From the UHGV virus genome UHGV-0189653: a DNA stretch of 51,563 bases. The stretch is one strand, 5' to 3'. A program made the translations under genes and the position numbers. The notes below the pieces were generated by a model. The model searched no databases, was not told the DNA's origin, and worked only from the letters and a program-made list of their open reading frames with translations. This DNA is from a virus. Positions 28,086-30,520 of this stretch are shown piece after piece; the stretch's first letter is position 1; each line of letters starts with the position of its first letter.

Positions 28086-28574
28086 ATGTTGGATGTATTT
28101 ACTCCATTGTTGAAACTTTTTGCTAACGAGCCACTCGAAAGACTTATGTATACGATTATCATTTTTGGTCTCACTCTCTGGCTGATACCGAAAGAGTTTA
28201 CTGTCGCATTCAATGCTTATACTGAAATACCTTGGCTCTTTCAGATTATCGTTTTTGCCTTTTCTTTCGTGGTCGCCATTTCCTTCTCAAGATTGCGAGC
28301 ACATATTCAAAAGCATTATTCATTACTACCAGAGCAACGAGTATTGCTTCGTTTATCTGAGAAAGAAATCGCTGTATTTAAAGATTTCCTTAAAACAGGA
28401 AATCTTATTATCACTTCTCCTTGCCGTAACCCGGTTATGAAAAAATTAGAACGGAAGGGCATCATTCAACATCAGAGTGATAGCGCAAACTGTTCTTATT
28501 ATCTCGTCACCGAAAAATACTCCCATTTTATGAAGTTATTCTGGAACAGCAGGAGTAGACGTTTTAATCGTTAG
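28086..28574 (+). CDS. sieB: superinfection exclusion protein SieB
   Basis: 162-aa membrane protein starting MLDVFTPLLKLFANEPLE with two hydrophobic segments; plus strand opposite the early-left operon. Confidence 0.8.
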   Translation: MLDVFTPLLKLFANEPLERLMYTIIIFGLTLWLIPKEFTVAFNAYTEIPWLFQIIVFAFSFVVAISFSRLRAHIQKHYSLLPEQRVLLRLSEKEIAVFKDFLKTGNLIITSPCRNPVMKKLERKGIIQHQSDSANCSYYLVTEKYSHFMKLFWNSRSRRFNR

Positions 28575-28726
28575 CTTACTGTGTGCTTCTCCAACCATCG
28601 GCGCGCACCAGTTTCGGTTTTAAATGTTTTGCTTTTGGTATACGTCATGGCAGTGAACGTTCCATCCTGGTTGGGGAACACGCCGCACACCAGGGATTCG
28701 TTGTTGCCGAGGTTGATTTTTTGCAT
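28571..28726 (-). CDS. ydaF: YdaF small protein
   Basis: 51-aa ORF by manual translation (MQKINLGNNESLVCGVFPNQDGTFTAMTYTKSKTFKTETGARRWLEKHTVS); convergent 4-nt overlap with sieB. Confidence 0.6.
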   Translation of the reverse strand: MQKINLGNNESLVCGVFPNQDGTFTAMTYTKSKTFKTETGARRWLEKHTVS

Positions 28727-28736
28727 TTTGCGAATC

Positions 28737-28871
28737 TCACATCTTGTTGCTACGTATAGCGACTTCTGCCTGCCAGAGATCCCAGTCGTTGCTGCGTAAA
28801 GCCTGCACAGCCTGGTTGTAAGTGATACCGCAACAATCCATCAAATACTGAACTACTTCGTAATGCACCAT
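28737..28871 (-). CDS. ydaG: YdaG small protein
   Basis: 44-aa ORF by manual translation (MVHYEVVQYLMDCCGITYNQAVQALRSNDWDLWQAEVAIRSNKM); first gene downstream of predicted pL. Confidence 0.6.
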   Translation of the reverse strand: MVHYEVVQYLMDCCGITYNQAVQALRSNDWDLWQAEVAIRSNKM

Positions 28872-29040
28872 CTTATCTCTCCCCTTAACGCCGGGTGGCG
28901 GAACTAACTGCTGCACTGCAAAATTTGAATCCCGCCGTCATGTTCATACGCCTCGGGCTGGCTACTTAACCCCTTACCACTGCCTGGTAACTCGAAGTAT
29001 TGCCCGGCGTTCTGTGGGGCGGGGTGGGTGGTATGCTGGA

Positions 29041-29105
29041 ACTATAGGTAATGCCTAATTGATTGTCAATAGGCTATGCCTAATGTTTTGAGCGTAACCT
29101 AATAG
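29041..29105 (-). promoter_or_regulatory. OL/pL-like leftward early promoter with operator repeats
   Basis: Minus-strand -35 TTGACA (29069-29064), 17-nt spacer, -10 TATAGT (29046-29041); GCCTAAT half-sites at 29053-29059 and 29078-29084, CCTAAT at 29098-29103; 33-bp block 29053-29085 is a near-perfect inverted copy of 29707-29740. Confidence 0.55.
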
Positions 29106-29136
29106 GTGATGGCGACAGCAGAAAGTGATGGGGGGG

Positions 29137-29655
29137 TTAAATAACGGAATCCAGGAGTTTTCCGTCAGACCATATAAGTTTAAGTTCCAGTTTTGTGATG
29201 TTCTGGCTTTTCCGTTCAGATTCTAGAGCTTTCAGATACTTACCCACTTTCATTTCCATCGCTGCTATGTAGGCGCGAACATCGTGGTCAACCCAATCTG
29301 GTTCTGTAGCATTTCCAGATAACAGGAAAGCTACAATCGCTCTTATTTCATCAGAGGCTGCTTGATAAAGGTTGTTTATATCTAAAAGTTCACTTTTTGT
29401 ATCTGAATTGGTGGGGGTTGGTATGGGGTATTCGTTAAGCCCCCAATGCTCTGGACCAACAACATCAGAAAAGAAACGCCATAATTCTGGAAGTTTATCT
29501 TTACTTATAGAGCCTTTCTTAATCCAGTCATAAATTGATGGTGGTTGGACTTTGAAGTGGCGTGCGACCTCCGCCTTTGATTTGACGGATCCCGATGCGA
29601 TTTTTTTGTTAATGGCCTGCTCTATCGCTCGGCCTAAGTCTTTACCACTAAGCAT
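29137..29655 (-). CDS. racR: prophage repressor RacR
   Basis: 172-aa ORF MLSGKDLGRAIEQAINKKIASGSVKSKAEVARHFKVQPPSIYDWIKKG (N-terminal HTH); divergent from ydaS; RBS AGGAGA. Confidence 0.85.
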   Translation of the reverse strand: MLSGKDLGRAIEQAINKKIASGSVKSKAEVARHFKVQPPSIYDWIKKGSISKDKLPELWRFFSDVVGPEHWGLNEYPIPTPTNSDTKSELLDINNLYQAASDEIRAIVAFLLSGNATEPDWVDHDVRAYIAAMEMKVGKYLKALESERKSQNITKLELKLIWSDGKLLDSVI

Positions 29656-29679
29656 TGCTTAATATTCTCCTATGCGCAT

Positions 29680-29752
29680 TACATTAGGCAATCCCTACCC
29701 TTACCGCATTAGGCATAGCCTATTGACAATTGCATTAGGCGTCGCCTAATAT
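29680..29752 (+). promoter_or_regulatory. OR/pR-like rightward promoter with operator repeats
   Basis: CATTAGGC at 29683-29690, 29707-29714, 29733-29740; palindrome ATTAGGCGTCGCCTAAT at 29734-29750; -35 TTGACA at 29723-29728 with TAATAT about 18 nt downstream. Confidence 0.55.
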
Positions 29753-29778
29753 TTCTGTGTGTTTTTGGAGTTCATTCG

Positions 29779-30075
29779 ATGAAAAAAGAGAACTATTCAT
29801 TCAAGCAAGCTTGTGCTGTTGTCGGTGGGCAATCAGCAATGGCTAGGCTTTTAGGTGTATCACCTCCAAGCGTAAATCAATGGATCAAAGGGGTACGTCA
29901 ATTGCCTGCCGAGAGATGTCCAGCAATTGAACGTGCAACAAGAGGTGAGGTTCTGTGCGAAGAACTTCGTCCTGATATTGACTGGTCATATTTACGACGT
30001 TCGGCATGTTGTTCGCAGAATATGTCAGTGAAGCAACTAAATGACAGTAACAAATCCTCATTTGATCATACCTGA
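29779..30075 (+). CDS. ydaS: Cro-like HTH regulator YdaS
   Basis: 98-aa ORF with HTH (QSAMARLLGVSPPSVNQWIKG), divergent from racR. Confidence 0.85.
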   Translation: MKKENYSFKQACAVVGGQSAMARLLGVSPPSVNQWIKGVRQLPAERCPAIERATRGEVLCEELRPDIDWSYLRRSACCSQNMSVKQLNDSNKSSFDHT

Positions 30076-30097
30076 AACATCAAGAGGCAAATGATTC

Positions 30098-30520
30098 ATG
30101 AAAATCAAGCATGAGCACATCGAATCAGTGTTGTTTGCCCTAGCAGCCGAAAAAGGGCAGGCATGGGTAGCCAATGCAATTACTGAAGAATATCTGCGCC
30201 AGGGGGGCGGCGAATTGCCCCTGGTTCCAGGCAAGGACTGGAACAATCAGCAGAATATCTATCACCGTTGGTTGAAAGGTGAAACGAAAACGCAAAGAGA
30301 AAAAATTCAGAAGCTGATCCCAGCAATTCTGGCAATCCTTCCGCGCGAGCTGCGTCACCGACTCTGCATCTTCGATACCCTGGAACGCCGTGCATTACTG
30401 GCGGCGCAGGAAGCGTTAAGTACGGCAATTGATGCGCATGATGATGCAGTCCAAGCCGTTTACCGGAAAGCGCATTTCAGCGGCGGCGGTTCTTCCGACG
30501 ATTCTGTCATTGTTCATTAA
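30098..30520 (+). CDS. ydaT: YdaT (CII-like regulator, toxic when derepressed)
   Basis: 140-aa ORF MKIKHEHIESVLFALAAEKGQAWVANAITEEY...; follows ydaS. Confidence 0.8.
   Translation: MKIKHEHIESVLFALAAEKGQAWVANAITEEYLRQGGGELPLVPGKDWNNQQNIYHRWLKGETKTQREKIQKLIPAILAILPRELRHRLCIFDTLERRALLAAQEALSTAIDAHDDAVQAVYRKAHFSGGGSSDDSVIVH

Follow-up and report, generated by a model that had tools for sequence, protein, structure and literature searches.

The window analyzed here is a 51,563-nucleotide stretch of DNA (virus genome UHGV-0189653), in which the region from 29041 to 29760 is the immunity region of Rac, a prophage of Escherichia coli. The locus was identified by racR, ydaS, ydaT, ydaF, ydaG, and sieB; ydaG and ydaF read leftward, racR follows, and ydaS-ydaT read rightward, while the genes to the left of racR are ydaG, ydaF, sieB, kilR, ydaE, racC, recE, and recT. 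A 1-kb segment of the locus shares 99.8% identity with E. coli strain 537-20 and 99.4% with K-12-type genomes; among 5,426 complete genomes of E. coli, 1,086 contain at least 80% of this segment. The RacR protein differs in length from that of K-12 (172 amino acids here versus 158) due to a 1-nt homopolymer deletion in this DNA. Strain differences also touch the operators described below: OR1 is perfect here but begins GTTAGGC in K-12, and the spacer of OR2 is ATA rather than ACA.

racR is flanked by an inverted repeat. Its blocks, at 29053 to 29085 (33 nt) and 29707 to 29740 (34 nt), had been described in an initial annotation of this DNA as near-perfect reverse complements, and they are indeed so apart from one short indel/mismatch patch (TG versus GCA), with an exact 24-nt core, ATTGTCAATAGGCTATGCCTAATG (Table 1). 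This core is the longest inverted repeat in the whole window with arms up to 1.5 kb apart; the longest in 20 shuffled sequences were 12 to 15 nt. The TTGACA hexamer assigned to each block is present in both, on the plus strand at the right and the minus strand at the left.

Table 1. Genes, repeats, promoter elements, and operator sites at the racR locus, in window coordinates; mismatches are counted against the full 17-bp palindrome.
Feature	Coordinates	Strand	Description
ydaG	28737..28871	-	Gene 1 of the predicted pL operon
Predicted pL leader	28872..29036	-	C-rich 5' end; common to heteroimmune lambdoid prophages
pL -10	29041..29046	-	TATAGT; promoter scan
OL1	29043..29059		TATAGGTAATGCCTAAT; degenerate, 3 mismatches; overlaps pL -10
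Left arm	29062..29085		Exact 24-nt inverted repeat
pL -35	29064..29069	-	TTGACA; promoter scan
OL2	29068..29084		AATAGGCTATGCCTAAT; 1 mismatch; 2-nt overlap with pL -35
Outward-facing half-sites	29097..29107		ACCTAATAGGT; possible weak third left site, Escherichia only
racR	29137..29655	-	Repressor gene; 172-aa form here
OR4	29647..29663		ACTAAGCATTGCTTAAT; 3 mismatches; over racR start codon
OR3	29683..29699		ATTAGGCAATCCCTACC; 3 mismatches; over racR promoters (PMC9638921)
Right arm	29707..29730		Exact 24-nt inverted repeat
OR2	29708..29724		ATTAGGCATAGCCTATT; 1 mismatch; overlaps pR -35; published RacR footprint
pR (PydaST) -35	29723..29728	+	TTGACA; promoter scan
OR1	29734..29750		ATTAGGCGTCGCCTAAT; perfect palindrome (ATTAGGC-GTC-GCCTAAT), 0 mismatches; overlaps pR -10
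pR (PydaST) -10	29747..29752	+	TAATAT; promoter scan; start-site mapping and -10 mutagenesis (PMC9638921)
ydaS	29779..30075	+	Cro analogue; pR operon gene 1; YdaS_toxin/P22_Cro Pfam matches
ydaT	30098..30520	+	Divergent from racR

The two TTGACA hexamers belong to the two best sigma-70-like sites in the 1.7 kb scanned. pL reads leftward (TTGACA/17/TATAGT, 29069 to 29041) and matches the consensus at 11 of 12 positions, and pR reads rightward (TTGACA/18/TAATAT, 29723 to 29752) with 10 of 12 matches. The latter, previously noted as a pR-like promoter, is the published PydaST, to which Wisniewska and coworkers mapped the ydaS start by primer extension in 2022 and whose -10 they mutated (PMC9638921).

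The unit that recurs in both arms is a 17-bp palindrome, ATTAGGC-N3-GCCTAAT (7-3-7), with the 7-mer ATTAGGC as its half-site. At up to three mismatches, ATTAGGCNNNGCCTAAT occurs six times in the 51,563 bp, always within 29043 to 29750, and three of the six sites have at most one mismatch, against about 0.008 expected by simple arithmetic with equal base frequencies. OL2 departs from ATTAGGCNNNGCCTAAT at a single position and fits the published degenerate consensus, (T/A)TAGGC-N3-GCCTA(T/A), exactly. OL1 in E. coli combines one good half-site (GCCTAAT) with one degenerate half-site and is nearer the consensus in Mixta, Morganella, Proteus, and Klebsiella phage KpF5. At the right, OR4 is the published operator overlapping the racR ATG (PMC9638921), and an equivalent was found in all homologous loci. 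The operator half-sites proposed in the initial annotation are thus present in both blocks and can be refined to the ATTAGGC 7-mer, although OR3 and OR4 had been overlooked; the palindrome at 29734 to 29750, there considered an extra element, is perfect and is the main right operator, with OL1 as its degenerate counterpart. A conserved third left operator was considered at 29097 to 29107 and rejected: this single half-site region is kept in an O157 relative and is restricted to Escherichia, with no equivalent in other genera.

Operators and promoters are interlocked in the same way at both ends of racR. In each cassette, O2 (ATTAGGC-N3-GCCTAT) is fused to the -35 hexamer TTGACA, 7 to 8 nt follow, and O1 (ATTAGGC-N3-GCC) is fused to the -10 hexamer, which is TAATAT at pR and TATAGT at pL; the promoter-proximal half of O1 that runs into the -10 reads GCCTAAT at OR1 and ACCTATA at OL1. 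The center-to-center spacing of O1 and O2 is 25 bp at pL and 26 bp at pR. As both arms are of the same design, the inverted repeat represents two copies of one promoter-operator cassette, divergent across racR. The arrangement is that of a lambdoid immunity region: racR (minus strand) diverges from the cro-like ydaS (plus strand), OR1 to OR4 lie between and over these genes, and, at the level of sequence, OL1 and OL2 lie on the far side of racR and overlap a leftward TTGACA/17/TATAGT. The likeness to lambda OL/OR noted earlier is therefore supported by the layout and is to be expected in a lambdoid prophage.

Other signals were sought around the arms. No hairpin followed by a T-run was seen by eye on the minus strand between racR and OL in Rac, and terminator-like matches near the arms were dismissed as operator palindromes beside T-rich -10 regions, on the wrong strand. 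An Rfam scan of 28400 to 30200 returned nothing relevant at an E value of ≤1, with one spurious tmRNA match elsewhere. A structured, put/nut-like RNA in the pL leader was also discarded as a candidate, as its folding z-score (-0.35) was no better than that of shuffled sequences, and no convincing compensatory changes were found across 31 pL leaders.

Repressor binding at the right arm has been studied in K-12. Krishnamurthi and coworkers reported three palindromic repeats, electrophoretic mobility shifts, and ChIP enrichment at the racR-ydaS region in 2017 (PMC5700373). DNase I footprints of RacR subsequently gave an ATTAGGC logo and operators of the (T/A)TAGGC-N3-GCCTA(T/A) type, with the OR1 region protected first, at the lowest RacR concentration, and three racR promoters were identified, one of which yields a leaderless transcript (PMC9638921). 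In 2023, purified RacR was found to elute as an octamer in size-exclusion chromatography, an assembly that its reporters ascribed to four inverted repeats located between racR and ydaS; the same paper describes the RacR regulon, to which the ydaFG operon belongs, as lacking detailed characterization (PMC11014345). The racR-ydaS operators of K-12 Rac represent the same locus, motif, and PydaST as here, and OR1 to OR4 correspond to the published inverted repeats, but these papers (PMC5700373, PMC9638921, and PMC11014345) concern the intergenic region and the racR start only, and not 29041 to 29084. The operator motif that the initial annotation offered for RacR-type repressors is accordingly correct but not new, having been published in 2022 (PMC9638921). 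A literature search (OL, pL, ChIP-exo, SELEX, and sbcA), which did not extend to the older work on sbcA, recE, and kil in subscription journals, found no description of OL1, OL2, or pL of Rac and no report of RacR bound at OL. The motif, right operators, pR, and RacR octamer are already known, and a left operator and promoter are expected of a lambdoid prophage; what is new is that OL1, OL2, and pL are predicted, with good support, in Rac and its relatives, and that the octamer can be read in another way.

Comparison with related loci, picked via the RacR protein rather than the DNA motif, provides the main evidence on the left arm. The motif lies on both sides of the repressor gene in these loci, and a two-site cassette lies downstream of it in Mixta, Morganella, Proteus, Klebsiella phage KpF5, an Achromobacter metagenome-assembled genome, and Pigmentiphaga. 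The left cassettes share the 25-bp site spacing and the same overlaps with the -35 and -10 hexamers, while their spacers and inter-site sequences differ; the -35 is TTGACA in all 11 pL cassettes compared, with a TTGACT variant in Proteus. In KpF5 the left cassette is 1.9 kb away, on the far side of both an HSDR_N-domain gene and an evident intrinsic terminator, and in Klebsiella sp. strain R390 no OL was found within the 3.4 kb examined. A separate DNA-pattern scan of viral contigs recovered 84 contigs with strict twin cassettes (55 distinct sequence combinations), always divergent and 574 to 2,907 bp apart. Twin divergent cassettes thus recur across genera at distances of 0.57 to 2.9 kb.

The pattern scan fixes O2 by ascertainment, and conservation statistics were therefore taken from the protein-selected set, which comprised 78 viral loci (53 unique sequences, 87 to 99.9% identity). 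Only two of the 28 OL half-site positions are variable in this set, compared with 34 of 60 in flanking noncoding DNA (Fisher P = 5.7e-6), and the half-site positions of OL2 are invariant in all 53 unique sequences. For the validated OR1 and OR2 half-sites the corresponding values are three of 28 and 18 of 36. These patterns of variation indicate that OL1 and OL2 are under purifying selection. Two heteroimmune phages, 666R9 and Tritos, are homologous to this DNA across the entire pL leader and up to the pL -10; past this point both phages have a different palindrome set at the same position and a different repressor. Immunity-specific DNA therefore starts at OL1, a pattern familiar from the classical immunity substitutions of lambdoid phages. 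From this evidence, we infer that RacR binds OL1 and OL2 and that pL is probably an active, RacR-repressed promoter.

The predicted pL operon continues after ydaG with ydaF, kilR, ydaE, racC, recE, recT, ralR, rcbA, xisR, and intR, and published expression data concern many of these genes. Depletion of RacR increases ydaG, ydaF, kilR, ydaE, racC, recET, xisR, and intR transcripts 40- to 100-fold in RNA-seq and quantitative reverse transcription-PCR (PMC6765115). CRISPRi complexes placed on racR itself give the same derepression from ydaG through intR (bioRxiv 10.64898/2026.09.06.749655), a result that in our view speaks against simple read-through starting at the racR promoters. Classical genetics has also recorded zygotic induction for the recombination genes of Rac (PMC5917428). 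Leftward derepression could nevertheless be indirect, via YdaS/YdaT or read-through from the racR promoters. Furthermore, a Rho-dependent terminator (trac) inside racR is reported to keep kil silent by normally blocking racR read-through (PMC4150792), so the left operon may receive transcription by two routes.

The trac terminator also bears on an alternative in which the left-arm sites are auxiliary operators only, serving looping repression of pR, autoregulation, or a roadblock to read-through, with the pL-like hexamers inactive as a promoter and the leftward genes transcribed by read-through from the racR promoters. Silencing of kil by trac implies that racR read-through can reach the left operon (PMC4150792), and no pL start site, predicted near 29034 on the minus strand, was found in the published literature searched. 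This alternative nevertheless appears unlikely. In every genus examined, conservation extends from the operators to the -35 and -10 hexamers, which invariably face away from racR; in KpF5 an intrinsic terminator separates the repressor operon from OL, so that the genes beyond would need their own promoter; derepression persists when CRISPRi complexes sit on racR; and the heteroimmune relatives have promoter-like and operator-like sequences of their own at the same position.

The similarity of the arms might instead reflect recent copying, the left arm being a nonfunctional relic that arose from the right operator by duplication or gene conversion. In this strain the two arms match at all 24 nt of the core, six of which are required by neither operator nor promoter, and OR2 of Escherichia is of the OL2 type, whereas OR2 in other genera is TTAGGCAATTCCTATT; for this latter reason some homogenization between the arms is likely to have occurred in Escherichia. 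A relic is hard to reconcile, however, with a left cassette that persists across orders while unconstrained positions diverge, with left half-sites that are far less variable within Escherichia than the adjacent noncoding DNA, or with K-12, in which the two arms already differ from each other, and we consider it very improbable. Even less credence can be given to the repeats being the termini of a small IS- or MITE-like mobile cassette carrying racR. A 0.7-kb unit is indeed bounded by inverted repeats, and lambdoid phages swap their immunity regions as units, but such exchange is explained by homologous flanks, for example, the shared pL leader. racR is the sole gene between the arms, no transposase lies there, and no flanking direct repeats were evident by eye in the sequence read, so the mobile-element reading was rejected; in addition, the distance between the arms and their cargo vary (0.57 to 2.9 kb) while the place and orientation of the cassettes are fixed, and the repeats are fully explained by operator half-sites and promoter hexamers.

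The two arms are therefore, with high probability, the OL/pL and OR/pR cassettes of the Rac immunity region, through which RacR would silence divergent early promoters. The leftward, pL-like promoter of the initial annotation gains support from its 11 of 12 consensus matches, the purifying selection on its operators, the retention of the cassette across genera and orders, and the leftward derepression. Given the 25- to 26-bp spacing of O1 and O2 centers and the fusion of both sites to promoter hexamers, occupancy of O1 and O2 by RacR dimers in each arm would cover, and so occlude, the -10 and -35 elements of pL and pR. pR would drive ydaS-ydaT-ydaUVW, and pL would drive ydaG-ydaF on through kilR, recET, and xis/int. 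OR1 would fill first, in agreement with its published protection at the lowest RacR concentration, and OR3 and OR4 would come next, acting at the promoters and start codon of racR and so allowing autoregulation.

The DNA-binding side of RacR appears to be as conserved as its sites. The N-terminal DNA-binding domain (the first ~76 residues) is 74 to 96% identical across homologues and genera and includes a near-invariant segment, PPSI(Y/H)DWI(K/N)KGSISK(D/E)KLPELW; on the alignments, this conservation matches that of the operator sequence. RacR of Rac gave no match to the Peptidase_S24 domain, while homologues in Achromobacter and Pigmentiphaga join the same N-terminal domain to Peptidase_S24 (E = 1e-13 to 4e-15). 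DNA-binding specificity and operator layout are thus common to repressors that must be inactivated differently. The self-cleaving S24 domain is a trait of the CI/LexA protein family and not of the switch architecture.

Looping between OL and OR is plausible by analogy, since the four strong or moderate sites of the two arms would take four dimers, equal to the reported octamer, and the spacing of adjacent sites is lambda-like. More speculatively, that octamer might be built from the dimers at OL1, OL2, OR1, and OR2, which would close a loop of ~0.64 kb in the manner of lambda CI. The RacR octamer would then consist of two tetramers bridging OL and OR, rather than four dimers aligned in the racR-ydaS intergenic region. 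No helical phasing is conserved between the arms, the O2-O2 distances being ~591, 614, and 639 to 641 bp and 1.3 to 2.9 kb. The RacR N-terminal domain with its O2/-35 ... O1/-10 module appears to recur from Enterobacterales through Burkholderiales, combined either with a noncleavable oligomerization domain or with a self-cleaving S24 domain. We therefore advance only tentatively, as a possibility that may well fail, the combined proposal that the octamer is a tetramer bridge between OL1+OL2 and OR1+OR2, with a loop of that length, and that the RacR N-terminal domain and the cassette form a portable specificity module.

In E. coli K-12 the RacR repressor is essential, and a defined OL/pL would directly explain the induction of kilR, recET, ralR, and xis/int when RacR falls. 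It would also suggest the different reading of the octamer set out above and would provide a compact natural OL-OR system for looping studies. The conserved cassette makes RacR-type immunity regions recognizable by sequence in approximately one-fifth of the complete genomes of E. coli and also in phages from other genera, while the general picture of lambdoid switches is unchanged.

In phage lambda, CI acts at OL and OR on pL, pR, and PRM, and a CI octamer closes a 2.4-kb loop (summarized in PMC8630535). The Rac region is similar in that racR lies between two operator clusters overlapping divergent early promoters, adjacent sites are ~24 to 26 bp apart, weaker sites cover the promoter of the repressor gene itself, its transcript is leaderless, and the protein forms an octamer. 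In KpF5, the HSDR_N-domain gene and terminator stand where lambda has rexAB and timm. Rac differs from lambda in having two conserved sites rather than three at OL and in the separation of its arms by only ~0.64 kb, so that the putative loop would be far shorter. No N gene or nutL was recognized in the Rac pL leader. RecA-stimulated self-cleavage, a property of lambda CI, is not expected of RacR because its C-terminal domain is not an S24 peptidase, and YdaS, unlike its lambda counterpart, is reported not to repress racR (PMC9638921).

DicA and RacR have been named as members of the Gifsy GfoR/GtgR group of noncleavable, antirepressor-controlled prophage repressors (PMC3121763). RacR resembles this group as an essential prophage repressor of ~160 amino acids lacking an S24 domain; the Burkholderiales relatives of RacR differ from it by adding an S24 peptidase domain to the same N-terminal domain and operators. 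A close parallel is found in the Rac-like lambdoid prophage CP-933P, in which Jurenas and coworkers described a PaaR2/YdaS switch with OR, OL, PL933P, and an octameric repressor in 2021 (PMC8630535). CP-933P operators are 18-bp palindromes of the GTTTAGTAA type, and this difference in sequence implies an immunity specificity distinct from that of Rac; CP-933P also has a toxin-antitoxin pair between the repressor and OL, unlike Rac. As in Rac, a second promoter, of which the -35 and -10 elements match PR exactly in CP-933P, together with repeated operators, lies beyond the repressor operon, and whereas pL of Rac is predicted from sequence, PL933P was tested experimentally and shown to be repressed (PMC8630535).

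A homopolymer at the 3' end of racR (29191-29194) reads TTTT in the window, one base short; sequence comparison showed that its K-12-type, O157-type and phage 683R6 counterparts have TTTTT. The loss of this base therefore alters the C terminus of RacR, which ends in ...ITKLELKLIWSDGKLLDSVI* (172 aa) instead of ...ITKTGT* (158 aa). E. coli CP178306 and CP178308 also encode the 172-aa form (100% identity), as does E. ruysiae (99%), and this form is either a genuine allele or the product of a sequencing error that recurs at the homopolymer. The 21 nt at 29169-29189 (GACCATATAAGTTTAAGTTCC), comprising the K-12 racR stop codon and the bases just 3' of it, are unchanged in the O157 relative (88% identical) and nearly unchanged in Klebsiella phage KpF5, in contrast to the surrounding non-coding DNA, which is variable.

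The window also differs from K-12 at regulatory sites within 29701-29750. The right operator OR1 is a perfect palindrome in the window and reads GTTAGGC... in K-12, the spacer of OR2 is ATA rather than the ACA of K-12, and the -10 element of the racR promoter PracR2 is GGTAAG, versus the published AGTAAG. The YdaT-box ATGATTCATGAAAATCAA, published as overlapping the ydaT start codon (PMC11879457), is intact at 30092-30109.

Two prophage repressors, from Achromobacter and Pigmentiphaga, consist of a RacR-type N-terminal domain (~75% identical) fused to a Peptidase_S24 domain, and both loci retain the twin cassettes and the operators ATTAGGC-N3-GCCTAAT. RacR and operators identical to those of the window (100% for the protein) were encountered on JARKOR010000130.1, a 5.2-kb contig in a 'Candidatus Nanosynbacter' metagenome-assembled genome (MAG) bin; this is almost certainly a contaminating E. 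coli contig.

Of 5,426 complete E. coli genomes, 3,703 carry the predicted leader of the leftward promoter pL (90-98% identity), and the majority of these carriers have no racR; the leader is a flank that different immunity cassettes have in common. C makes up 50% and G 17% of the first 40 nt of the leader, which resemble a Rho-loading (rut) site. Searches of the leader for conserved RNA structure and for an Rfam match found neither.

Coordinates of the predicted pL leader and of features at homologous loci (L003, KpF5; L013, Achromobacter; L014, Pigmentiphaga)
Feature	Location	Strand
Achromobacter prophage repressor	L013:3001-4098	
Pigmentiphaga prophage repressor	L014:3001-3906	
Predicted pL leader	28888-29036	minus
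KpF5 region with the HSDR_N-domain protein gene and terminator	L003:1318-3298	

In KpF5, a 384-aa HSDR_N-domain protein (annotated as DUF450) is encoded between the RacR-type repressor gene and the left operators (OL), with an intrinsic terminator, CCCGCTTATGCGGGATTTTTTT, after its gene. Because the gene sits where lambda has rexAB, it may be a lysogen-expressed defence gene.
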